Shown in pieces: positions 8,022 through 29,568 of a stretch of DNA of 64,000 nt. Position numbers and translations under genes: made by a program. Within the stretch, counting starts at the first letter, position 1; each line of letters opens with the position of its first letter. The notes beneath the pieces are model-generated. The model worked only from the letters and a program-made list of their open reading frames with translations. It was not told the DNA's origin and made no database searches. Source of the stretch: Carcharhinus longimanus (lineage: Eukaryota); contig JASCQW010000162.1 in NCBI GenBank assembly GCA_030264375.1, positions 13,814,343 to 13,878,342 on the forward strand. Direction: 5' to 3'.

Positions 8022-8219
8022 TTAAACGTACCATTCGTTAAAGTTCGATGAAAGCGTGCTGTGGTTGGATGTGTGGTGGACTGCAGACGATGTTGGGGAC
8101 ATTGAACTGTTGGTCTGGTTTTCTGTTGTCGGCGACACGATGGTGGGGGGTGTTGAGGACTCGTAGCCAGAACTTGCCGCAGGAGAGGGCTGTGACCCTT
8201 GAGAGGATGCTTCGTGGAC
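8022..8219 (-). CDS. zic1: Zic1 coding exon 3 (Ser/Thr-rich C-terminus)
   Basis: Acceptor TTTTTCTTTGCTAG|GTC. Translates [30 protein letters not shown]...[10 protein letters not shown], the characteristic Zic1/2/3 C-terminus; TAA at 8024-8022. Not shown in this frame in the ORF track. Total protein 446 aa. Confidence 0.96.
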
Positions 8220-8681: not shown

Positions 8682-8888
<207 letters not shown>

Positions 8889-10411
8889 TCAGCTCTTCTC
8901 AAATTCACCACTCATATGTACATATATACATTAATATCACCTTCCTTTACGACCTTGTATATCTCGAGTTTACAAAAAGAAAGCAAAGCAAAACAGGCAC
9001 TCATTTTGGAATTCCCTCCCGTAGGCATCTGCGAACATGCCTCGCAAACCGTAGATTTCCGCAGCGGTATTTATTTATTCTAACCTTTTTTTAAAAAATA
9101 TATGTGGTGCACACAGCTGGGAATTTTATGAAGAATGAATAAGGTTGATTAATAAATGTTGATTCTTTGCTTAATTTGTGACATCGTCAGTGGCTGGTTG
9201 CACTATGTTTGCAGCTGCCGTGGCGCCCTTCACACGAAGCTCTGACTTGCTTTATTTCCCTTTGAAAATTGCGGTGATGCGTTGAATAAAGTTGAAAAAT
9301 ATGTAACAGAACAGTTTTAGGTTTCTGATTCTCGCACGTAATACCGTCCCTCCCCGAAACAAGCTCTTGCTTCTGTGGTGAACCTTTGCAACGCCAACGC
9401 TGAAATGGCGATTTCGAAAATGTAACGAGGATTTGCTAATGCCATTAACATTTTCGCTTTAATTGAACCGTTTCCAATTCTGTTTATTTAGCGTAGGAGT
9501 TGGTGGACATCTCGTGCAGTGAAGTGAATTGTCGCTAAGTGCCCCTGGAGGTTTTATAGTCGAGAAAGTGTTAAATCCCGACTTTGCAAAATCTTTACAA
9601 CTACCTAACCATTATGTGTCATTAACATCGACATTGTTGTCGTGTGCTATTTTCTCCACGGCCGCACATTGTGAACTAAGTTTTAACAAGACTGTAAGCC
9701 CTAGAGAGCCCAAAATGTATGTAAAGGTATACATATATTATACAGAGATATACGCACACACACGGACATATATACTACAGTATGCATACATACACAGACA
9801 AATACATACGCACAAATATATTTAAATATATGCGCCTGCGTATAAAAAGTTAGCATTGCAGTTATATATGCACGCACTTGCAAACACATACAGATAGATA
9901 TAAATATTCAAATATAACATAAGACAGAAAAGAGGAAGCGAGAAACAAAAATATACACTCCAGTTGCTGCTTGCGAATTTCTAACGAAACTAAGCAAACC
10001 AGCAAATGGATAATTCCACCCTCAAAAAAAAATTAAGCTTGGTGACAATTTAATTAAAAATAAACACATCACAATATATCTGTAGCTTAACCATTTTCCG
10101 TCAATGTTGGAATCAGTAAGCAATGCATTAAATGTCCTTGCAGGACGGCACAGAATCTAATAACATTCTACATGTTTAAAAGAACGGCGCCCACAACATC
10201 AAAAATACAGAGCTCAGGGAGTTAAGGGAAATCAAAATACTTAAACATGCTAATTTTATTCTGATATAAATATTTATCTACACACGCATCTACAACACGT
10301 TTACAAAATAAATACTTGGAGTGTCCCATTTATTTTTTTAATGGAAAGTATGATTGAAACGGCTATAAATGCTTCGTAGTATTTCATTCTCTCTAAATAC
10401 ATTCGCCATAC

Positions 10412-11390
10412 CTGTGTGAGTTCTTTTGTGGATCTTGAGGTTTTCTGATCTGGCAAAGACTTTGCCACAGCCAGGGAATGGACAGGGGAATGGTTTCTCG
10501 CCAGTGTGGACTCTGATGTGATTTACAAGTTTATATTTGGCTTTGAAAGGTTTTCCCTCTCTTGGACACTCTTCCCAGAAACAGATATGATTCGACTGCT
10601 CTGGTCCCCCAACGTGTTCCACTGTTACGTGAGTAACCAGTTCGTGCATCGTGCTAAAAGTTTTGTTGCAGGATTTTTTAGGATTCGTCAACTGTTCGGG
10701 CTCTACCCATTTACATATGAGTTCTTGTTTAATGGGCTGCCTCATGTAACGAAAGAAGGCCCCGGCCCCATGGTGGGCCGCCATGTTCATGTTCATGGGT
10801 CCATAGCTGTGTAGCTGGGTCGAGGCGTAGTGGTCCGATCTGGGACTAGTGACCTGGCTGTATTGGTCTGCTCTGCCATACATGTCCCCGGAAAAGCCTA
10901 AGCGCATTTGGCCGTTCATTACATGTGCATTGGGAGAAGCGTGGGTCGTCGCCTGCTCGTGTAGACCCGGGAAGAGTAGGTGCCCCGCAGCGTCAGTGTG
11001 TCCATGGGGTCCCGCAAAACTGCCCGCAGCCGCCGCCGAGGCGAACAGGCTGTGGCCGGCGCTGGCAGCCGCCGCCGCCTCCCCAAAGCCCCGATTGCGA
11101 AACAGAAAGTCCCGGGTCGAGTTGAACGCTGCGCTGCTGTACGAACTCACATGGCTGGGATGGTGACCGAGAGCGGCGGCGTAGCCTGGAGCCTGCGACG
11201 TGAAGGCAGTTTGACCCGAAGCGAGATCGTGAGTGCTGGGGCTGATTTTAAAAGCACCCATCCCGTCGGCGAAAGGATTGATCCCCAGCCCCACTTCCCG
11301 GTCGTTGACATCGCCTGTTGAGTGATGTCGGGATGTTCCGAAGGTAGTCACTCCAAGAGTAGGGTACTGAGGTCCAGCGTCCAGAAGCAT
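10412..11390 (-). CDS. zic1: Zic1 coding exon 1 (N-terminus, ZOC motif, ZF-NC, ZF1-ZF3)
   Basis: ATG at 11390 gives [18 protein letters not shown]...[15 protein letters not shown], the Zic1 N-terminus. Contains ZOC motif [12 protein letters not shown] and [19 protein letters not shown] followed by three C2H2 fingers. Ends ACA G|GTATGG (phase-1 donor at 10411). 979 nt. Confidence 0.97.
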
Positions 11391-11779
11391 CGTCTGGCGA
11401 TGGGGGTACAGAAGCAAAAATGATACAAATTTTGTAACAAAAAAAGAAGCTACACACAATTCACAACGAAACTTGCTTAATACAAAATAGTCTCAGAGTC
11501 TGTTTGGAGGACTTGCAAAAACTCCTTTTTGTTTCCCCTTTTTTTTCTCCCCTCCTTCTCCCTCTCCTCTTCAGCGTGTGGGAATTTGCTGAAAGGTATT
11601 TTCTTCCCCCCTCTGCAAACGCAAATCATGCAATATTGTCTTTTGCGGTTTATCTTCCTGGGGAGAAACTTTCACCTCATCAGCCGGGCGGTGAGCTCGA
11701 GAATGATAGCGGCAATCATTCCTGCAGATAAATGAATTGAAGAGACAACACCATCCCCTTGATGAATGGGAGTTGGGGG

Positions 11780-11900
11780 AGGAGTCACGTGGCGGAGGGC
11801 GTCCCTGTCCATTGGTCAGGCCCGTGCTGCCCCGTTGCGCCAGGCCGCCAATCACAGGCGCCCGCCCTTGCTCCCGCCGCCTGATTGGCCCGCTCGCCTC
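11780..11900 (-). promoter_or_regulatory. Zic1 proximal promoter (GC/CpG-rich; 3 CCAAT boxes, E-box, GC box)
   Basis: CACGTG 11786-11791; ATTGG 11811-11815; CCAAT 11848-11852; CCCGCCC 11861-11867; ATTGG 11884-11888. About 400-500 bp upstream of the Zic1 ATG. Confidence 0.7.
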
Positions 11901-14900
11901 ATCAATCCCAGGTCTTGTACGCGCATGACAGTGGCTCCTGATAAATTATTGNNNNNNNNNNNNNNNNNNNNNNNNNNNNNNNNNNNNNNNNNNNNNNNNN
12001 NNNNNNNNNNNNNNNNNNNNNNNNNNNNNNNNNNNNNNNNNNNNNGGAGGGGGAGAGAGGAGGTGGGGGTTGGTGGTGCAAAGAGAGTACTGAAGAGGGA
12101 GAGAGAAAAAAAACTCTTGTCTTCTTCGACTTCACAAATCAGTCACCCCTTGTCATGCCTGCTTGAGATTCGTTAATGTGCCACAACTCCAGACGAGGGG
12201 GGAAAAAAAAGCGGGCGGCTTCCTTTGTTGTTCAGTAGCTTTTTGATCGCCGGTGAAAATTCACTTACCCAGATGAGTGAGCAAAAAGAGAAAGAACACT
12301 CTCTTGAATTGGGTTAGGAAAATGCATATGTTTGGATTCAGTGCAAACATACAACACTTGGTTGTTTTTTGAAGGCGAAACCCTTGATTAACCTGTCTCT
12401 CCCCATGTAAAAGGCGACTGAAAACATCTTGCTTGGGCCTTTTTTTTAAACCACAGTGACACTGAATCGCCCCTATACATATCTATAGGCTCCCGAACAA
12501 TTGCAGAATAGCTGCGAGTAAGGATTCCCCCCTTTAAAAAAAACAGATTTGCTTCTTTCATCGATTACGGACAAAGAGAGCGAAAATGCGTTATGAATAC
12601 TCTCAGCTAAGAAAAAAAAATGTAGCTTATTTCCACCTCATGTTTTAGTTTATTCCTTGCCATTCACGGTCCCAAATTTGTTAAAGTCCATCTTCTGTGT
12701 TTCTGCAAAGTAATTTAATTATTTACGTGAGGCCATTGGTTTGCATATTCATTAAGTCTAATTATATTCTAGTAATAGAAACGTAAAAAAGCCAACAAAG
12801 AATCGGAATCGTTCAATTTACCTTTTGTTCGCCACTTCAATGGATTTCCTTGAAGCTAAATCTGTGTGTTAAAGTCTTATTTTATTACAAAGCAGCCTTG
12901 CCGCATCCTTCAATAATTATCTCCGTTAGCAGACCATCACTTTTTTGAAGGGCACTTTGAGTTAGTTGCCGTGTTTCCTGTCTTCCCACTTCAGCATTTT
13001 CCCCCCTTATCGAACAACACATTTACACAAACATCCTGGCTTGCTTACGTTTTACATCTTAAAGGTTTTCATAGAAAGGTACAACAGGTTAATCTTTAGT
13101 GGGGGGAAGGGGGAGGAAAAAATACTGTTCGCGCGGAACTATTGGCGCAAGTGTGTGGCAATGAAGTTCCAGTTACATTTTTCAGCCGCATTTTTCTACA
13201 AGGAAACAAGTTTAACATTAAATGTTAGAAAACTGAGGGGAGGGATGGGGGGGTGCAATCTCCACGTTTGCAGCGTTGCAGCATCAAAGGGTTTAAAATG
13301 GGTGGCTGTTAAGTGCATATTCCCAATTTACGACGACTTGAGGCTGTGCTCATTTTGCTGATGACTATTAGGGCGGCGTGGCTGCTTGCTAGAGAATTCC
13401 AAGTGCAAGTTTTTAGGTGCTTTGACGGTCCTTATGCGAGGGTGTTGCCAGTTAACCTGGCTTTCCCGATGCAACAGATCCCAAATTTGCAGTGCACATA
13501 ATGAAATTTTTTTTTTTCGCCCTGCTTCGGTCCTTGTATCTGCGCCCCAAGAATTAAGTGGAACGCGATATTGCCTTGCTGAGTGAGTACAATAGCTAAC
13601 ATCACGGCATTGCTCTAAATGATGCAATATGCTGAAAACATGGATATTAAAATCACAGCAGTCTAGTAGCAGAAGCAGGCGTAATTTGATTCAAAAAGAT
13701 TTACTGCGCGCTGATAGAGTGTGCAAATTCTAAAGGGACACTTTAAGAGTATGAAAAGTAAACGTTTCCCATAGCATTATCTTTGGGCTACCATCTCCGA
13801 ATATACAAAGAAGGGCTGATTTTAAAAGTTGTGGGATGGTGGAAGTTATCAAGTGGGATTTGCGGCGCTCTCCGCAGGAAACGCAGGCTGCTTGAGTTCA
13901 AAGCCACATGCACCGACGTGACATATAAGCCATTAAAATATCATCCTGACGGCTCATTTCTGCTTCATCATACATTCCCTAACTGCTTCCAGAAACCTTG
14001 AAAAGGCGAAATGAAGAATGGCTACCTAGACAAAGCTCCAAAGTAGATTTTTTTTTACTTCGAAGTTACCTGAATTAAACGATCGAAGGCATCTTCTTCA
14101 ACAGGTGGAGGACGGTAAGAGAGGCACGTGTATTCGACTGACTTTTACTAAACGACTCCTGACCTCTGAATTTCCATCATCTTTCATGTAAATGCAATTG
14201 ACTAAAAAGAGAATGGAGATATCAGTCAGATTTTTGTTTCCTCAGAATAGCCCTTGTCAGGGGCCATCATGTTGTAATAAAAGCAATCTAGGTGCGAATG
14301 GCTCTGAATTATACATTTCCATTCGAATGCACTTGTGTGAACCGATATTTTGCCTCGGATTGTTTTCAGTCGATGGATAGCAAAGCAGTTAGTTGTTCTG
14401 TGGAAGGGAGGGTCGTGGGGGGAACGTTTGCCTCGGGGTTGAAGTGTTAGTTTACAAAAAGAATTGTTTTTACTCGCTTTAAAACGCTGGCTATTTTCAT
14501 CCAGTCCGATTTAAAATTTAAATTTGATTTATACCTCGGAAACGAAGTTAATCGTTCAACCGTTTATTTGCGACGAACATATATATCGCATACGTTGCTG
14601 TCATTAAAGTGGAATTTTACAACTCTGCGCATTTTTGTACCCAATACGGTTTATTTTTCGGATGCGCGAATGTATATTTGGAAGTTCTTCAGTTTGTGAG
14701 TTGAGCAACGCATGACCTTTATCCCGCGTTCTCTTGATAAGTAAACGCTTTCGAATATTTGAGATAATGAATTGGTAGTTGCGTCCACGCTCTCCTTAAA
14801 CACAAATTCCCACTAATGGAACGCCATTTAAGTGAATTCAATTGTAATGCAAAAGTTATCTTGCAAATTTGTTCCTGATGACTGACCCCAGCACTGCATG

Positions 14901-17201
14901 TTTAATTGATATCTTTTTCTTCTCTCTCTCCAGATCTGCTTTTCCTCATTGTTCGAAATGCACTAATGCTAAATGTCACCCCATAGTTTAGGATTTTTCT
15001 CATACAGTTCCAGGGAGTCACATAGTTTTTCTTTTCCCCCGTTTATCATACTTATCACTGTTAAAACTGATCCCAATCAAGTTAGTCAGTTGGCTTTTGC
15101 GCGCAAGAACAGCTCTGAAGTCCCCGACTTTTGAAATACCATATCTTTTGACCCCTGACCCGTGACCGACCACATGTGCCAGAGTCACACAATGCCACAC
15201 AATGCATACCTCGGAAAATATTAGCTGTGTTGAAAGAGTCGTTGGCTAAAGTGGGTGACAATAGTTCAATACATATACACGCTCTTTATTTGGACCACGG
15301 AACGGAATGCAATTTTCCTGCTATTAAATCTATTCGCTAGTTAGGTACGTTGAGATTCCGGTGTTGGATGCTTCATTGATTTGTTTCTCATGTGGCTGTG
15401 TTTTAACTTTCTTTTTCTTATTATTATCATTCAGGCAAGCGAGATTATGAATCATTTTTTTACACGTGCACTTAAATAAATCCTCATCAAAGCAACCCCA
15501 AAATTAAACTCATCGACAAGAGATATCTGGGCAAACTCAAAAAAAAACCCTAGCTCCAGTCAAACTTATTAGTTCTAACAGTGCCCAAAGCCAAGCGTTT
15601 AAACATTTTATTATACTTCCGATTAGGCAGACACTCACATTTCTAGTATTTTGTTTCAAGTTGCCCGTGGCTTTGAATTAAAATTCCTACTGCCTGAGGT
15701 TCGCCTTAGAAACTTTGGGCGGGGGGTATGGAGGGGGGTGGGGGGATGAGTGGGGGAAGTTTGAAGGTCACCCTTGCCTTTACCCATTATCCGCCTGCTT
15801 GCCTTGAGATCTGTGCATCACATCACTGTTAGAGATGTCATTGGTACTTTGACCGATTTGTTGTACAAAGATATTTCCATTTTTTGGAATTACTTCCAGT
15901 GTGTGTCTGAGTGTGTGTGTTTGTGCGTGTGTGTGTGTGTAGTGTACACACATATATTTACTATATACATAAATATATATAGAGAGAGAGAGAGATAGAA
16001 AAATTATCTACATAATATTTTCACGTAAATTTCGCGTTACCAAATTTACAGGTCCTTTACGCAACGTATCGGGGTGCCCCGATGTTGAAATAAAATATTC
16101 TGACACTAGTTCCCTTATCTTATTTTGCTGAATTTATTCTTGGGCTGTAGATGGTTTAAGGATTGCGTCAAAAGTTCAAAGCTAGAGATTTCCAACTTTT
16201 TTGGAAAGGACGAACTTTTTCCCCATGCATTTATTTTTCGATGTGGACAACTGTGGAACAATAAGTGTGAAAGGCAATATTACTGGACACACTCCTGCAG
16301 TTTTGAAATATATACTTTCCACCCACTTAACTAAAAAAAACACATCAAAAACAAACTAGCGTAAAATCCGCCAGGACACGAATATTTTCATATTGTATGT
16401 GGAAGTTCACCAGATTTTCTGAGTTCTGGGGTTGGCAGACTGAGTTCATGAGGACATTCTACCGCTTAACCATCAGCAATATTAGGTTTAATATTAAGGA
16501 CACAGACCTAGAGCAAGATCTGAAACGTCACAACTATATTCTGCAGCTAGCATGGGATTGGGCCAATTTGGAAAAATGTGTAAAAATATAACAAAAATAA
16601 GAGCTAATAAGTACTATGGCGGTTTATAGATCAATAATTTATTGTGGAAAATGCGTTCACACAGTAAGTCTTGTTATTGGTATTATTGGGTGCAGTTTAC
16701 ATATAAGCAGCCTCTCAGTTCTTCAACAGGACAAAATGTCATCCCATTAAATTTAGCCAGGTATCCAGAGCTACGCGAGCTAGTTACGTTCTTGTGGCTT
16801 AGTTACCTGATTTGGAGAAATTGAAACCAGTAATACAAGCTAATCCTGTTATTTTGTTAACCATGTTATTTATTTAAAGAGCAAATGTACCTTAAAGCAT
16901 CAGCCCACTAACTTTCAACTTTGTTTTACTGGATTCGTTTGATCTATCTATCTATCTAAGTATCTGGGAGTTCAGTCATCTGGTTGTGTATTCGTCTGCC
17001 TCATTGTACCAAAAAGTTATTACGAAAGCACTTTTTTTGTAGGTTGTCAAACATCCCGTTGTGTTGCTGGCCTGTTTGAGGCAATATAATGCAATAGAAG
17101 AATCTCGGAATCCCTTCCAAAATTGCACTTACAGTGAAGGGTGCCACTATAAGAAAGATTTTACATGTCTAAGCATTAATTTGAGAGACTACTGATGCAC
17201 A

Positions 17202-17221
17202 ACACACACACACACACACAC
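17202..17221 (+). repeat. (AC)n microsatellite
   Basis: Seen directly, about 10 units. Confidence 0.9.
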
Positions 17222-20200
17222 TCAAAATCATGTTTCTAAAATAGAGTTGCTTCGGCACAGTTTTTTGTTGGAAGTTCTTTCTATTGATATAGTTTATTAA
17301 AAACTGAAACTGCCAACCCCAGTTTTTCCCCCTCAGAACTGTTTAACACACTATGTCCATAATCAAATCCAGCCGTCACCAGTTTTAATACAAGTGCGAC
17401 GTTTAACATCATCAAATTGTGAACTTGCAACTAACTGCAAAATTCGAATTGCACCCATTGAAATACAGGCCTGCTTGCGACTGAAAGAACTGTTCATTTT
17501 TAATAATTCCCGTGATTACGTTTAAAAACACTTCCTTACTGAAGAACTGCTTCAGGTTTTACCATGGCATCATTGCTCCCTCAGTATATGCAGAGGAACT
17601 GAAAGTTGTTATTTGCTCAGTTGGTAACTTATTAGCATGTAGACTTACACTACCTTCTGCATAAACCTGAATACGGAATTGTTTTAAAGCAATCGCTGCC
17701 CCTGACGAGACTACCAGTATAAAACACTTACCTATGGAATTAAGATCAAACACAATTTTTTAAAGTCCTCTCTTAACTCGTGGTTTTCAATCTCCAGTCT
17801 CTATCGTTGTCACTTGCAGTGTTTTATGTGGTCACATACTGTACAAATTAGTGACAGTACATCCCACAAGCAGCTGTTTGCTTTAGTTCAATGTTCTCTG
17901 CATGGCAGTACTAGAATTAATATTTGACGACCATCGCATTGTAACAACAACCTTCGACCCAATGTGCCTGGACTGCCATATTATTCCATGACACTTGCAT
18001 TCTTTAATTTATTTACGGACGGTTTGAGTGTAATGAAAATTGGACGCGTATTTGGATCAATTCAAGTCTGAGACTTTGATCTCCGTGATAGGTTTATGCC
18101 CCCTTATAAGTATCAGGGTTACAGGTATCTACATTTCAGTGCTTAATCACAGCCACGTACAGTCAGACCCGTATCAGAGAAAAAAAAACTTTCCAAAATT
18201 AGAAATCGTTTGTCAACGATGGAGAGGTAATGTAGAAATTACCAGAAATATATTTGTCGATTTATTGTGGCCAAAGCTAATGGACTTTTAAGTTGGGGAT
18301 AGGGGATGTGGGGGGNNNNNNNNNNNNNNNNNNNNNNNNNNNNNNNNNNNNNNNNNNNNNNNNNNNNNNNNNNNNNNNNNNNNNNNNNNNNNNNNNNNNN
18401 NNNNNNNNNNNNNNNNNNNNNNNNNNNNNNNNNNNNNNNNNNNNNNNNNNNNNNNNNNNNNNNNNNNNNNNNNNNNNNNNNNNNNNNNNNNNNNNNNNNN
18501 NNNNNNNNNNNNNNNNNNNNNNNNNNNNNNNNNNNNNNNNNNNNNNNTGTTTTTTTTTTCAAATTAGTCGGTGATTGTAAAATGTTTAAAATATTGTTCA
18601 CAAATGTGTTTTGCGTCAGTCACACATTTAACCCTGTGAAATTTAAATAGTGCCGCTTATTTGTGTAATAATCCTGCATTGATCCAATCGTATGCACATT
18701 ATATCGAATGAATTGTGCAAGTTGTTTTATTTCTAGCTCCTTTCCTTGGCTCTTTTAAGAGTTCCAACCATTCACTGCTGAGAGGTGACCTAGACCATGA
18801 TGGCTATCTCCACGATCAAAACAACAGGTAAATTAACTTGCTATGTGCATGTTTTTTTTTCTGAATTGGAGTATTATGCTTGAAATCTCGCAATATTCTG
18901 TATAATTTAGTATCTATGTGCAGCATGTTTACGCCGTGGTCTTTACTAAAAGTGAAAATAGTGATCTTAAGTGACATTTATATATTATATGTATATATAT
19001 AGAGAGAGTGTGTTCCTAGTATTCTCCACTATGGTGATAACTTGTTATCACACCCTAACTTCCGCCGATGGGAGTAACTGTAGCGCTCAGTGAAACAAAT
19101 GCCTCCTTCCGTCCAGACACTCATGGCTATGGATTACGACTATACTGTCCATCGAGGTTCCCTAGCCTTTTACTGTTTCAATAGCTGTCAAACATGTATA
19201 ATAACATATTTCTTCTTATTTTGTAGCTGACGTTTTCAATATTGCATGAGTACATAGCAGGTATGATGTCGTTACTGAAATATTGCCAGGGAAAACAAAA
19301 CAATGAAACCAATCGGTGTTGCTTGACGAATACTTTCAATAATGTCATTAACCAACCAACAGCCTAACAGTTATTGGTACATAAAATTAACATCGTGAGT
19401 TACTAGGGGAGGGGTCTCTATGCGGCATCTTACATAGGACAATTACATATATATTCTTAAAGGTAATAATAAACCGTCAATGCAGTAAATGTAAAACGCA
19501 ACCCTACTTTCAGTCCTTTATCTTGTAACATACTGATGTCGCTTATTGAAATGTAAAGTGTATCATTCAGTACTGCACACTTACTGGAGTTGCTTTATCT
19601 AGGATAATACCCTTGTTTGAATTTTGTTTCTTAAAAGGGACTCTTTGCATATTTTGCACATAAGCGTGCTACAGGACTTGTTTTTAATCAAAATTCTTTC
19701 ACAAATATTTACAAAATGCATATCGATGAAGGCCAAAATGTACCGAATTCTAGCTGTTATGTATGGCAACTAATGTAAGCCACTCACAGCTTGGCTGTGT
19801 AGAGTTTTTCCTAGCAATTAGATGAACTAGCCCATTCTGTTTTTCAGGTTTCATGATCCTTTCTTTTAACGATTTCGTGGGGAAACAATTACCGGTTCCC
19901 AGAAATGTAGTTGGATCATCGTATCTGTTGACACCAGGAATCAGTTGATTCTCAGATTAAACCATATGATTTAAACTGCAAGCATGTACAAACCCACAGA
20001 TATGCAACCAAGCCAAATTAATCTGTAGTAAAAATGAAGTATTTCCTTGTTCATTACGCTAAGCGTTTGGTGGGTGGGTTGAAAGGTACAAGTATAACGC
20101 ATGGAATCTTGGGAATCTAAATTACTAGGCTTCTAGCTTTTTTTTAAATTGAGCTTCTGATTAGAAGGAGGGAATAAAATATTGCATCAAAACTATGCCA

Positions 20201-21820
20201 GAGTTGAGCTTCAGTAAAAAGAGCGGGTTTCCCTTAAACTGTTAATTTCAATGCATTTTCCGAAAGCAAATTTTGCCAAAAAATAATTTAATTTGGAATT
20301 TACACTGCTCAGTTCTGACTTAACCAAAAGCAAATACCACGCCTATTTGTTGCATTTCCAATGTTTTCTTTTCCCGCCGGGCTTCACTTTACACTAGGGT
20401 TTAATCAAAGTTCCTTAGCATCTCTGTTGGATTTCTTTAGTGCTGATCCTGCAGTCTGCAAACCTGGAATTCTGCAATAATTTCCTGTTTATAATGGGGT
20501 GCAGGAAGCTGTGAACTGCCCGCCATAAGAAGGATATAACGTCTGCCTCGTATTATTCTGTGACATCTTAATCACATAGTGAAATATCCTGTCGGTAAGA
20601 GAAGTAGTAACGCGCTAATTTCTGAGGAATTTTGTTTGGACTACAATATAAACCATATGTCCAGCAAAAATAAACTTTTCCACACTTTATCGACGTTTAC
20701 AATCTTTGCAAATGAATTAAACGATAGACTGGAAGGATCAATTACGTGAAATAAAGAGGGAAACTGAAGAACCCTCACTTCATCTGCATGCTTCTGTATA
20801 ATTGCATTATTATGGCACTGTACGCATTTTATACTTAACTAAAAGTGCAAAATTTGCCATCTGCCAAAATAGATATTGACAACGAAGGAAAATAAACAGC
20901 GTGACCGGCAATGCATATTGCATATCAAGAATTCTTAAAAGTCAATTGCAATGAACAATCTCGTGATTGTCTTTCAACAACTTAAATAAGATAGGAAAAG
21001 TCAGAGGTCCATGTCACGTTACGTGGAATAAATGTAGAATTGTATAGTATAACAACATTACGCTCAGTCACACAGTGCAAATTGGATATTTTACAATACG
21101 TTTACTTTAGAGATTCCACTAATCTAGATTTAGGCTGTAGCAAACATTGCTAAATTTCAACCTGCATATAAGCACTGTGCTCTTTTCTAGGGACCGTCGC
21201 TCGCGACTGACAAACTGCTCGAAAGACAACGGGTAAACTGACATCAAGGTGGGGACTTGACCAGGTATGCAGCAGCACAAGTGCGAATCCCAGTTTAAGC
21301 CTGCAGTGTGAAGCCCTGGAGGCTGAAATACAAACGTGTCAACAATCAGAGACCCATATTGCATCCTTCTCTATTACACGTTAGAGCTTTGGAGTGTGTT
21401 GGGATGGNNNNNNNNNNNNNNNNNNNNNNNNNNNNNNNNNNNNNNNNNNNNNNNNNNNNNNNNNNNNNNNNNNNNNNNNNNNNNNNNNNNNNNNNNNNNN
21501 NNNNNNNNNNNNNNNNNNNNNNNNNNNNNNNNNNNNNNNNNNNNNNNNNNNNNNNNNNNNNNNNNNNNNNNNNNNNNNNNNNNNNNNNNNNNNNNNNNNN
21601 NNNNNNNNNNNNNNNNNNNNNNNNNNNNNNNNNNNNNNNNNNNNNNNNNNNNNNNNNNNNNNNNNNNNNNNNNNNNNNNNNNNNNNNNNNNNNNNNNNNN
21701 NNNNNNNNNNNNNNNNNNNNNNNNNNNNNNNNNNNNNNNNNNNNNNNNNNNNNNNNNNNNNNNNNNNNNNNNNNNNNNNNNNNNNNNNNNNNNNNNNNNN
21801 NNNNNNNNNNNNNNNNNNNN

Positions 21821-21955
21821 CGGTTATTGGATAGGCACATGGAGCACACCAGAATGATAGGGAGTGGGATAGCTTGATCTTGGGATTGGACGTAGCTTGG
21901 CGCAACATTGAGGGCCGAAGGGCCTGTACTGTGCTGTACTGTTCTACGTTCTATG
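21821..21955 (+). mobile_element. CR1-clade LINE 3' end (ORF2 terminus plus tail); 5' part probably hidden in the N-run 21408-21820
   Basis: RLLDRHM resembles the CR1 ORF2 C-terminal FK..LD motif. Tail GGGCCGAAGGGCCTGTACTGTGCTGTACTGTTCTACGTTCTATG resembles elasmobranch CR1 (HER1-like) 3' ends. Confidence 0.8.
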
Positions 21956-21962
21956 AAATATT

Positions 21963-22104
21963 TGGTCTATGTTTACTTTATCAATCCCTTTTAAAATTTT
22001 ATGTACTTTGATCAGATCCCCTTTCGTCCTTCTAAACTCCAGCGAGTGCAATCCCAAACTGTTTAATCTCTCCTCATACATCAACACTTTCATCCCCGGA
22101 ATCA
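21963..22104 (-). mobile_element. CR1-clade LINE ORF2 fragment
   Basis: Minus strand translates IPGMKVLMYEERLNSLGLHSLEFRRTKGDLIKVHKILKGIDKV, matching the CR1 ORF2 motif YEERL..LGL.SLE.RR.RGDLI..YKI..G.D. Confidence 0.85.
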
Positions 22105-22658
22105 GCTGCGACCTCACACCTCACCTCATTGACAACACCACAGTTCGACAAGTTTGCTGATTGATGTTAAGGGCTTAATTTTTCCAGCCCTTCCCAATGC
22201 AGGATTTTCCAGTCCCACCAATGGTGACACCACACCCCCCCCTCCACACCCCACCTCCCTCCCCACCATAAATTTCTGTCCACCCTATCACTCACAACTC
22301 CTTTTGAGAAACCTACCTTTTCTCTCTCTCTCTCTCTTTCTTGTATTGTAGGTATGCCGTGTGCTAGACTGCAGGCTTCAAGCTCTGTCGCCAGATCAGC
22401 TTAGAACGACGGCCTAAATCCACGGGAAAGCGCAGCACCGGGGTTTCCGCTTCCCTTCTGCTGAGCAAATCTGAGAGGGGCTACAACGTACATATTTGAG
22501 TTAGTGGCCTGGTTTTTTGTTACCCTCCCCTTCGTTGTTTCCAAAAAAAAAGACGCTAAACTACTTTTTTTTTCTCTTGCACATGCACGGTTTTAGACAG
22601 GCGTATGCAGTCAGGGCGAATATAAAAGACACTCTGCAGTGAGGACAANNNNNNNNNN

Positions 22659-22692
<34 letters not shown>

Positions 22693-24369
22693 GGGATTGC
22701 GGCTAGCATCACGTTCTGGTATTAGAGGAAACATATGAAAAAGTGAGACTGATATATGGAGCGCAGTTCGGTCTAAAAAGCCTCTCACTCGTGTTTACGT
22801 AGACAGAGGCGATCTACTGGCAATTTATCATTGCCCTATCTGTGTTTTTGTTTTGCAATTCCTCTCCATAGTACACTGCAGTCCACTTTTTTCCCTCTTC
22901 CCCTAGCGATGCGAGTTTCCTTTTCGCGGACCGCAGCATTTACACATTCTCGCAGCACGGTGTACTTTCGCCTTCACAAACTTGAAATTGGAAACAGGTT
23001 TTCTTTTTGGTGGGGGGGGGGNNNNNNNNNNNNNNNNNNNNNNNNNNNNNNNNNNNNNNNNNNNNNNNNNNNNNNNNNNNNNNNNNNNNNNNNNNNNNNN
23101 NNNNNNNNNNNNNNNNNNNNNNNNNNNNNNNNNNNNNNNNNNNNNNNNNNNNNNNNNNNNNNNNNNNNNNNNNNNNNNNNNNNNNNNNNNNNNNNNNNNN
23201 NNNNNNNNNNNNNNNNNNNNNNNNNNNNNNNNNNNNNNNNNNNNNNNNNNNNNNNNNNNNNNNNNNNNNNNNNNNNNNNNNNNNNNNNNNNNNNNNNNNN
23301 NNNNNNNNNNNNNNNNNNNNNNNNNNNNNNNNNNNNNNNNNNNNNNNNNNNNNNNNNNNNNNNNNNNNNNNNNNNNNNNNNNNNNNNNNNNNNNNNNNNN
23401 NNNNNNNNNNNNNNNNNNNNNNNNNNNNNNNNNNNNNNNNNNNNNNNNNNNNNNNNNNNNNNNNNNNNNNNNNNNNNNNNNNNNNNNNNNNNNNNNNNNN
23501 NNNNNNNNNNNNNNNNNNNNNNNNNNNNNNNNNNNNNNNNNNNNNNNNNNTAAAACTTCGATTCTTAACGTTAGTCGCAGGGGTTGGGGTGGGTGAAATA
23601 AAAAAAAACCTTTGGGGGTGGGTGGGGGGAGGTGGGGGGAGATGATGGGGACGGGGATGCGGCCAGGGATACCGCTAAAGAGATGATGATATCTGATCGG
23701 GCTTGGGATAAACTTTCCGACTCTCCTAACTGTACATTTGTTCGTGCAGCGTACACGGGGCACATAACACCTCGTAAATTATCAAACTTTACTGCTGCGC
23801 ACTCTTGTTCTCTTTAGTCTAATAGACGGTTCCAATTGAACCGCTCCGAAAAAAAAAGTGCCCAGTGGGTGCCTGTTAATCAGGAACATACCTAATTTAG
23901 TTTCAAAATTTAGGAAAACTTGCATGTGCACACAGGCTAACAACTAAGGAGTAACCTTCAGCGAAAAAAAACCCGTTAAATCCTGTCCCAATTTATCGCA
24001 GCTTGATGGATCTGATGCTAACCGCCTCCCACCCACCCCCGCTCAACCCTACACCCCCCCTCCCAGAAATGAATTACAGCATGATCAAGTGTCTAAGAGG
24101 GGGACTGGGGGGGGGGGGGGACGCTAGTCATTCATTCTTTGCGGTTAAGAGAGAAAAAGCCAACTCCCATCAACTTTAAGAAAAAAATCCTCATTTTATT
24201 TATTTAGTTTTGTAGAAAATCGCTGAAACACGAAACCGCCTTCCACTCAGAGTTAGTGCTAATAAAATGAATATGTTTGAAAGAAGCCAACCAAAAAAAA
24301 ACACATCCCCCAGCCAAAAAAAGAGACTTTTCAGTGTTTCTCTCTCTCTCTCTCTCTGTGTCTGCGGCT

Positions 24370-24480
24370 CTCCCCTCGCCCCCACCCCCAACCACTTAGT
24401 GGAAATACGCATGTGCCCTGACTGGGTCCTGTAACTGGCATTGTCAATCATCTGTAAGTGACCAATGGGATTGCTGGCTG
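24370..24480 (+). promoter_or_regulatory. Candidate Zic4 proximal promoter
   Basis: C-rich GC-box-like run near 24370-24390, GTCAATCA, and CCAAT at 24462-24466, about 230 bp upstream of the ATG. The TSS cannot be determined from sequence alone. Confidence 0.4.
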
Positions 24481-24691
24481 CTCGCAGAGCTCGACGGGCT
24501 GCAAAGCTGTTCATGAATCTCAAATCAGTTTCTCAATGCGTCCTGCTGCTGCTATCCGTCTGCACACTCTCTACACCGAATGGCTATCAACGTTGGCAAA
24601 GAACGACTTTCTAAAGTTCGGTAACTTTAAAGAGAGAAAAAAAGTTTTTTTTTGTGTCTTTTTTTTTCCCCGCTGTTAGGCATTATTGAGC

Positions 24692-25853
24692 ATGGATGCT
24701 TTGGGGAGTCCGATGATGGACCCAACATTCGCCAAGCGAAACCCAGCGCTGAGATTAGTAGATTTGGCAGGAGCTCACCACCATCACCATCATCATCACC
24801 ATCCCCCCCAGAGCATGACAGGCTTCCCGGGGCTCAGCGGCCATCCCCACTCAATGGCACACACGCACCCTGGGGAGAGTGCTGGAGAACCCCGCCTGGG
24901 GCCGAGTCCTTTCGGGCCTGAACACATGGGGCACCCTGCAGCCGCCGCTGCGCTTAAACTCAGCCCAACCCATCCCCACCACCATCACCACCATCATCAT
25001 CACCATCATATGGCAGGCCACGCTGAGGCTGTCTCCAATCCAACGGCAGCTTTTGGCCCAGCGCAGGCGGCGGCAGCAGTCAGTTACTCGGTCTCTCACT
25101 CCCACGCCAGCTACACTGCCCAGGCTATCTCGGCAGGTAGAGACTTCCTCATCCGCAGAGATTTGACATCCTCAGTAATGCCAGGTCTCACTGATCAATA
25201 TCCTGGCACAAGTTCTCACCACGGAATGTTTGTATCAACAACAGGTAGCTACCCCGGACACCATGGTCACCCCGAGGCTGGAAGCCACTCTCTATTCCCT
25301 GGACTGCATGACCAGGCTTCCCATACAGCCCCAGCTGGACACCATCTGAACGGACAGTTAAGACTGGGGCTACCTGGAGACATGTACGCCAGGTCTGATC
25401 ACTACAGTCAAGTAGCAAGTTCCAGGAGTGATCCCTTTGCCTCTTCCCCTCTACATGGCTACGGTGGCATGAATATTAACATGAACCTGACTGGCCACCA
25501 CGGTCCAGGTGCATTTTTTCGCTACATGAGACAACCCATCAAGCAGGAACTGATCTGCAAGTGGACTGAACCGGACCCTGTCACTAAAAAACCATGCTCA
25601 AAAACTTTTAGCACGATGCACGAACTGGTTACTCACGTAACAGAGGAACACGTTGGGGGACCAGAGCAGTCGACTCATATCTGTTTCTGGGANNNNNNNN
25701 NNNNNNNNNNNNNNNNNNNNNNNNNNNNNNNNNNNNNNNNNNNNNNNNNNNNNNNNNNNNNNNNNNNNNNNNNNNNNNCCTGTCCATTCCCTGGCTGTGG
25801 CAAAGTCTTTGCCAGATCAGAAAACCTCAAGATCCACAAAAGAACTCACACAG
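24692..25853 (+). CDS. zic4: Zic4 coding exon 1 (long N-terminus with poly-His tracts, ZF-NC, ZF1-ZF3; 86 N inside)
   Basis: First in-frame ATG at 24692: [27 protein letters not shown], a Zic4/Zic5-class N-terminal motif. Continues [40 protein letters not shown] and the fingers. Donor ACA G|GTTAGT at 25854. Divergent pairing with Zic1 identifies it as Zic4 rather than Zic5. The exact start codon is uncertain. Confidence 0.92.
24776..25009 (+). repeat. Two (CAC/CAT)n coding repeats: His9 (24776-24802) and His11 (24977-25009) in Zic4
   Basis: Direct translation; mixed CAC/CAT codons. Confidence 0.95.
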
Positions 25854-25855
25854 GT
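25601..25855 (+). repeat. Inverted near-identical copy of 10410-10664 (Zic1/Zic4 ZF1-3 coding tract)
   Basis: Hand alignment: 90/92 identical at 25601-25692 and 77/77 identical at 25779-25855. Both copies span exactly 255 bp. Confidence 0.95.
25693..25778. other. 86-N run inside Zic4 exon 1 (ZF2 and linker)
   Basis: Positions 25691-25780 are exactly the 30 codons expected for [30 protein letters not shown], so the frame is preserved. Confidence 0.95.
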
Positions 25856-29131: not shown

Positions 29132-29568
29132 GAGAAAAGCCCTTCAAGTGCGAGTTTGAAGGCTGTGACAGACGTTTTGCTAACAGCAGCGACAGGAAAA
29201 AGCACTCGCATGTGCATACAAGTGACAAGCCCTATAACTGCAAAGTAAGGGGCTGTGATAAATCGTACACGCACCCCAGCTCCCTTCGTAAGCACATGAA
29301 GGTCCATTGCAAATCTCCACCTCCCAGCTCGGGCTACGAATCCTCCACCCCTTCGCTGGTATCGCCTTCTTCGGACTCAGGTCGGGACCCCCCGGCTCCA
29401 GCCTCCCAGCTTGACCCCATCACATCTTCTCACGCAGCTAACCTCAGCGAGTGGTACGTGTGTCAGAGTACAGGAGCAAGCGGCATCCCAACACCTCCAA
29501 GTAACTCCTCATCACCTGGACCAAGAGAGCACCCTTACAGAAACTCTGACCCCAGAACTATTCTCTAA
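29132..29568 (+). CDS. zic4: Zic4 coding exon 2 (ZF4-ZF5 and C-terminus)
   Basis: Acceptor GGTTTTCCTTCAG|GA. Encodes (G)[70 protein letters not shown]...NLSEWYVC...DPRTIL*. 1162+437 nt = 533 codons. No intron after HMK, unlike Zic1. Confidence 0.95.

Follow-up and report, generated by a model that had tools for sequence, protein, structure and literature searches.

A 255-base zinc-finger tract without silent differences between the head-to-head Zic1 and Zic4 genes of Carcharhinus longimanus: probable non-allelic gene conversion

The window, that is, the whole 64,000-nucleotide stretch of DNA that was analysed, contains Zic1 and Zic4 as a head-to-head pair with divergent transcription. Gene models, best matches and a phylogenetic tree identify one gene of subclass A and one of subclass B, each with five C2H2 zinc fingers (ZF1 to ZF5) and an intron between ZF3 and ZF4, in agreement with head-to-head Zic pairs as defined in excerpts of PMC7403390, PMC4467302 and PMC2988786; the ZF3/ZF4 intron is described as ancestral in the last of these. 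The Zic1 model, on the minus strand, comprises 446 residues in three coding exons: exon 1 at 10412..11390, which is 95% identical to its best match, chimaera Zic1; exon 2, encoding ZF4 and ZF5, at 8691..8854; and exon 3 at 8022..8219. The Zic4 model, on the plus strand, comprises 532 residues in two coding exons: exon 1 at 24692..25853, which starts at the first ATG of the open frame and whose best match is catshark Zic4 (345 of 356 readable residues equal, 11 different), and exon 2, encoding ZF4, ZF5 and the C-terminus, at 29132..29568. The second exons of both genes served as silent-site controls. Taken by themselves, the best protein matches indicate a cartilaginous fish, most likely a shark or ray. 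Elsewhere in the window we found no long open frames apart from ones crossing runs of N, and no long interspersed repeat pair. The window has the appearance of a gene desert surrounding a developmental locus. It is rich in G-runs and holds 16 runs of N, 10 of which adjoin G- or C-rich sequence.

The Zic tandem duplication is reported to predate the vertebrate genome duplications (passages in PMC7403390, PMC4467302). For comparison with other species, we hand-labelled 167 named proteins from 240 matches, leaving out unnamed entries and redundant isoforms and assigning by sequence those entries named only 'hypothetical'. In a tree of the proteins flanking the tract described below (56 of the 167 rows), Zic1/2/3 stand apart from Zic4/5 with support 98, and a grouping of Zic1 with Zic4 is rejected (p-AU 0.036). 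The placement of Zic4 with Zic5, and of Zic1 with Zic2 and Zic3, indicates that the Zic1/Zic4 pair is old, as had been supposed when the locus was read from its sequence alone; the split between the two genes lies more than 500 million years back. A recent whole-gene duplication is ruled out by this tree and by the saturated silent sites of the flanks. A tree of the tract protein itself (56 rows, two faulty gene models, unconverged search) left 29 of 41 inner branches open and rejected no grouping. One protein in the flank tree, P0097 from Callorhinchus milii, is a divergent subclass B Zic that falls on a long branch outside the Zic4 and Zic5 groups; it may be a chimaera Zic6, a label that is a guess, and Zic6 is kept only in teleosts according to a review (excerpts of PMC4467302).

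The two genes share a tract of 255 bases, located at 25601..25855 (plus strand) in Zic4 and at 10410..10664 (minus strand) in Zic1, that runs from the second half of ZF1 through ZF2 and ZF3 as far as the splice-donor GT of the intron between ZF3 and ZF4. The Zic1 copy is fully assembled; the readable part of the Zic4 copy is 169 of 255 bases, the remainder being an assembly gap of 86 N at 25693..25778, with a length equal exactly to that of the Zic1 counterpart. The copies align along one ungapped diagonal (Zic4 position plus Zic1 position = 36265) with 167 of the 169 readable bases equal, as the sequence-only reading had counted. The tract is the longest inverted repeat of the window. Exact matches between the loci reach 77, 43, 29 and 18 bases within it; those outside it are at most 14 bases long and mostly of low complexity.

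Both ends of the tract are abrupt, in agreement with the initial description. At the 5' end, the tract starts directly past a codon that specifies Ser in Zic4 and Asn in Zic1 and that closes a divergent ZF1 loop (25565..25600, plus strand); the loop carries a two-codon indel relative to Zic1, located about 15 bases before the tract start. In the rows for cartilaginous fishes, coelacanth and lungfish, Zic1 and Zic2 have Asn at the bounding codon, and Zic4 and Zic5 have Ser there. At the 3' end, identity stops at the exon end, beyond which lie unrelated introns that have only the universal GT in common. The tract bounds are, in other words, breaks in homology. Because the tract starts two residues past the second cysteine of ZF1, only the second half of that finger is covered, and the proposal that ZF1 to ZF3 are homogenised applies to ZF2, ZF3 and the second half of ZF1, not to the whole of ZF1. 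Monodelphis Zic4 (P0031) has Asn just before the tract, as do Zic1 and Zic2, whereas other Zic4 proteins have Ser; this could be an independent change or the trace of an exchange one codon longer.

We scored silent differences between Zic1 and Zic4 at protein-identical degenerate codons. Within the tract, 0 of 50 such codons differ (0/26 left of the gap and 0/24 right of it). Within two protein-identical internal controls, the number of codons that differ is, exactly as first reported, 12 of 16 for the upstream block AFFRY..CKW (25511..25564, plus strand, equal in protein to Zic1 10760-10707, minus strand) and 13 of 25 for the exon-2 block GEKP..KKH. The same pattern is observed on a larger scale, with silent differences at 77 of 115 codons for the whole upstream region of exon 1 and at 42 of 76 for the whole of exon 2 (Fisher p 3.7e-18). 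Given the 40/68 observed in three gap-free control blocks, the chance of 50 identical codons is 5e-20, and the two tract halves are significant separately (1e-11 and 7e-11). Both tract halves of the Zic4 copy join unique Zic4 sequence in frame. Outside the tract, silent sites are saturated, as had been expected for a pair of this age, with pS of at least 0.94 immediately on either side. We conclude that chance and ordinary protein-level selection are ruled out as explanations of the tract by the protein-identical internal controls.

The two differences within the tract both alter the protein. At 25644 (plus strand), in the stretch that separates the zinc-binding histidine pair of ZF1, Val is replaced by Glu; at 25674 (plus strand), in the linker joining ZF1 to ZF2, Asn is replaced by Thr. 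Catshark Zic4 has Val and Asn at these positions and equals window Zic1 at all 84 tract residues. Among 164 Zic tracts compared (3 of the 167 proteins were dropped as broken), residue 257 is Val in 140, Met in 22, Ile in 2 and Glu in 0, and residue 267 is Thr in 6, all of them ray-finned fish Zic5. The change from Val to Glu is, judging by this distribution, probably a read error, and the change from Asn to Thr is an error or real. Both may be read errors; the probability that two random errors are both non-synonymous is 0.62.

The results point to non-allelic gene conversion, with a DNA template, between inverted cis-linked paralogues. We assign this explanation a probability of about 0.7, on an evidence base of one assembly in which 86 of the 255 bases of the Zic4 copy are missing. 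It is favoured because the controls exclude chance and protein-level selection and because an assembly chimera needs improbable exact seeds, as set out below. Conversion had been proposed from the sequence alone and is the best explanation of the tract; the proposal's further elements, that conversion was recent or recurrent and driven by fold-back pairing, fared less well. According to the conversion hypothesis, a break in one copy would have been repaired on the inverted copy 15 kb away, without crossover, so that the sequence of one gene was copied over that of the other across the longest gap-free protein-identical block common to both, which starts past the last paralogue-specific codon of the ZF1 loop and ends with exon 1. 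The product would have been tolerated because the protein is unchanged. That the tract is the longest gap-free protein-identical block suggests that longer events were stopped, presumably by the indel and the intron, or were selected against. The near-identical 255 bases would then have confused a short-read assembler, giving rise to a gap in one copy.

The inverted layout invoked for fold-back pairing of head-to-head genes about 15 kb apart is real: the inter-copy segment is 14.9 kb (10665..25600) and includes the start codon of each gene together with the 5' part of its first exon. However, sister-chromatid, homologue and RNA templates leave an equal trace, and the template could have been the same chromatid folded back, the sister, the homologue or a cDNA. 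Flanking markers are unexchanged: the N-terminus and C-terminus of each gene match the same orthologue. The gene ends are therefore not swapped, the segment between the copies shows no net inversion, and inversion or reciprocal crossover is ruled out for this individual. As both copies are in frame and run up to a common splice donor, a crossover between them, if it happened now and then, would invert the 15-kb segment and leave intact genes; if such a crossover occurred, the products would be two hybrid genes with the subclass A and subclass B N-termini swapped.

Three other explanations were weighed against gene conversion, an assembly artefact being the most serious. Such an artefact, in which the real Zic4 tract is a diverged one and sequence from Zic1 reads or contig ends was placed on either side of the gap during filling, error correction or polishing, accounts for a gap in mid-tract with exactly the Zic1 length of 86, and is in keeping with the presence of 16 gaps in 64 kb of assembly, with flanks of 92 and 77 bases that lie within one short read of unique sequence, and with two tract differences that resemble errors. 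Long-insert mate pairs could, moreover, have supplied a local fill with reads originating 15 kb away, and near-identical amphioxus Pax3/7 exons were wrongly combined in previous reconstructions, yet the identity there proved real (excerpts of PMC6010424). Against an artefact, filling based on overlaps needs an exact seed at each junction, for which the probability, computed with control-block divergence, is 1.7e-5 for 21 bases and 1.2e-8 for 31 bases, and no exact match longer than 14 bases exists between the loci outside the tract. A walk along Zic1 reads would, in addition, be expected to close the gap, and a pasted Zic1 contig would lack the two differences. A true repeat longer than a read would itself leave a gap in one copy, with flanks up to read length, and in a toy assembly model the 77-base right flank fits a graph assembler with k near 77-78 beside a true repeat; the left flank (92 bases, with two differences) fits no single k. 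The gap is among the 6 of 16 gaps without a G- or C-rich flank; since 5 of the remaining 15 are alike in this respect, no repeat is required to explain it, and the argument that an unusual gap betrays a repeat is weak, gaps in ordinary sequence being found in the window. Taken together, we consider an artefact unlikely, the small residual chance being that of a route outside these models.

Identity that is very old and is kept by selection at the DNA or RNA level, as in an exonic enhancer or an ultraconserved coding element and possibly after one ancient conversion, would draw on the low mutation rate of sharks (PMC10587355), on the small distance between window Zic4 and catshark Zic4 (just 11 of 356 residues) and on an age of up to about 200 million years being allowed at 2e-10 per year. 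A parallel is provided by coelacanth vasotocin/mesotocin, where a low GC3 was taken as evidence of purifying selection rather than conversion (as reported in passages of PMC4432659), and GC3 of the tract is low too. This explanation is improbable, slightly more so than an artefact. Silent sites are saturated immediately on both sides (pS at least 0.94), and one would not expect two genes with different regulation to be constrained at every one of 34 synonymous sites up to the homology breaks and no further; the tract carries neither a folding signal nor an Rfam family. It folds no better than shuffled sequence (z -0.01) and the window has 0 Rfam matches, which together speak against a structured RNA element. 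Conversion templated by reverse-transcribed mRNA of one paralogue, rather than by the neighbouring chromosomal copy, would explain why identity stops exactly at the exon end, with the universal GT alone beyond; but copying from DNA would end there as well, since the introns are unrelated, no intron has been lost, an inverted copy is present 15 kb away, and the known conversion cases cited here involve linked genes. We consider an mRNA template the least probable of the three, and very unlikely.

Conversion from a DNA template, the reading we prefer, can be bounded in time. The observation of 0 differences in 34 synonymous sites sets pS at no more than 0.084 (95%), which places the last event at an age of up to 21-209 million years if rates between 2e-9 and 2e-10 per site per year are assumed (42 million years at 1e-9). 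The description of the conversion as recent is thus not borne out, the bound on pS allowing tens to about 200 million years. The mutation rate of the epaulette shark is 7e-10 per generation, and sharks mutate slowly (excerpts of PMC10587355), so that the slow end of the age range is plausible. Recurrence, suggested at the outset as the alternative, does not follow from one pair in one assembly with a tract that is not GC-enriched: the raised GC3 expected from GC-biased conversion is not observed, the tract value of 0.44 lying below both genes, which argues against long GC-biased conversion. The GC bias of conversion is, for its part, reported not to be universal (PMC4432659). A different line of argument is available from the length of uninterrupted identity. 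Short exact runs are a poor substrate for recombination, and exact runs of only about 17 bases (median) are expected without earlier homogenisation, which counts against the conversion reading in its simple form and argues in favour of repeated events. It is conceivable that in slow-mutating cartilaginous fishes Zic1-Zic4 exchange has been unbroken since the pre-vertebrate tandem duplication, with repeated conversion maintaining the identity of the 255-base block and identity keeping the block recombinogenic, and that divergence outran conversion in faster lineages (ray-finned fishes) and in Zic2/Zic5; we hold this reading as a whole to be doubtful. If exchange never stopped, the DNA-binding domain of these developmental genes would have undergone concerted evolution for over 500 million years, and the locus would hold a latent invertible promoter segment.

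Base composition bears on the direction of copying. GC3 of the tract, determined on the gap-free Zic1 copy, is 0.44. The remainder of Zic1 has 0.61 (p 0.006) and Zic4 has 0.52 (p 0.19); when the tract is compared with the first exons in a class-matched test, P is 0.013 for Zic1 and 0.15 for Zic4. These values lean weakly towards Zic4 as the putative donor. The call is weak because GC3 in Zic1 already falls some 30 codons ahead of the tract, ZF4-5 in either gene are more GC-rich than the tract, a CpG comparison of the tract is not significant (p 0.14), and a codon-usage test failed its own control. That test gave the tract a score of 2.7 in favour of Zic4, but it frequently favoured the wrong gene for held-out blocks as well (7 of 7 Zic1 blocks and 6 of 9 Zic4 blocks), which renders it uninformative. 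At residue 266, chimaera Zic1 (P0124; S266T) and 3 of 3 shark or ray Zic2 proteins (P0192, P0197, P0202) have Thr, and window Zic1, catshark Zic4, shark Zic5 and also tetrapod Zic1 have Ser; the pattern would fit Zic4-to-Zic1 copying in elasmobranchs, with the Ser of tetrapod Zic1 counting against it.

Homogenisation of this kind is not general. Ray-finned fish Zic4 proteins carry F245Y (33 of 33) and S266A (29 of 33), ray-finned fish Zic1 proteins carry V255L (7 of 8), and shark and ray Zic5 proteins carry three changes, present in 6 of 6, that are missing from Zic2. Lineage-specific changes common to both paralogues are absent in ray-finned fish Zic1/Zic4 and in shark and ray Zic2/Zic5, and it is this retention of paralogue-specific residues that argues against general homogenisation. 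All five same-species pairs compared differ in the tract: Astyanax at 6 residues, Ambystoma at 3, Mobula at 7, Geotrypetes at 3 and Syngnathus at 9. Over the last 50 codons of the block, most of the compared pairs nevertheless have identical proteins. Cartilaginous-fish Zic1 and Zic4 from other species are represented in the comparison by one Zic1 (chimaera) and one Zic4 (catshark), and a third protein search for more cartilaginous-fish Zic4 returned, among 71 matches, only the same catshark cluster (32 members). The 84-residue tract of window Zic1 is equalled by 9 of 15 amniote Zic4 proteins and by 14 of 15 amniote Zic1 proteins, the exception being a broken model. With these 84 residues common to most amniote Zic4 and Zic1 proteins, a match at the protein level within the tract carries no information, and amniote tract identity fits selection or conversion alike.

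The mechanism is known from other systems. The linked developmental transcription factor duplicates Pax3/7a and Pax3/7b of amphioxus, there about 10 kb apart, resemble the Zic pair in having near-complete nucleotide identity in the DNA-binding domain with diverged linkers and termini; unlike the Zic genes they lie in the same orientation and derive from a cephalochordate-specific duplication, and conversion is mentioned for them as possible (excerpts of PMC6010424). The vasotocin/vasopressin and oxytocin-family precursors are, like Zic1 and Zic4, old paralogues, dating in their case from the base of jawed vertebrates, and have an exon-bounded central block, the neurophysin exon, that shows complete or near-complete identity within a species in cattle and birds and high identity in elephant shark and coelacanth, a pattern attributed to conversion; the same debate between conversion and purifying selection applies there as here (passages in PMC4432659). 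The neurophysin block differs in belonging to a hormone precursor, in spanning many lineages and in being GC-rich in mammals (PMC4432659), whereas the Zic tract is documented in one assembly and has low GC3. The clustered developmental transcription factors MRF2a and MRF2b of amphioxus likewise have an identical first exon and diverged other exons, with conversion proposed; unlike the Zic genes they are not adjacent, and a recent duplication remained possible there (excerpts of PMC7530620). Conversion between linked vertebrate paralogues was also described for newt Nav1.1/Nav1.3 and for Nav1.4 exon 26a/26b, in a study that checked assembly error by mapping reads across breakpoints; conversion there spreads adaptive amino-acid changes, whereas the Zic protein is unchanged (excerpts of PMC8476164), so that a functional effect is not evident here.

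What is distinct here is that the paralogues, a Zic gene of subclass A and one of subclass B, form a pair that predates the vertebrate genome duplications, that they are inverted, and that the tract has sharp bounds and saturated flanks. We found no report of conversion between Zic paralogues in the literature searched, a scope outside which most subscription papers fall, and the available excerpts of PMC2988786, PMC7403390, PMC4467302, PMC6984359 and PMC2837044 do not mention it; a known mechanism is thus apparently undescribed for Zic genes. If the conversion is real, paralogues with silent sites saturated elsewhere still exchange DNA in their DNA-binding domain, trees and rate estimates based on Zic zinc fingers are distorted in cartilaginous fishes, and probes, primers and short reads in the block cannot separate Zic1 from Zic4; the pair would also provide a cheap test of how long concerted evolution lasts under slow mutation.

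Two further observations concern the N-terminal part of Zic4. Two poly-histidine runs at 24776-25009 (plus strand), about 200 bases apart, make up a short direct repeat family. A ZOC-like stretch at 25127-25160 (plus strand) aligns with the ZOC box of Zic1; ZOC is often reported missing from subclass B (passages in PMC7403390), and ZOC-like sequences in Zic4/5 have been noted (PMC2988786).
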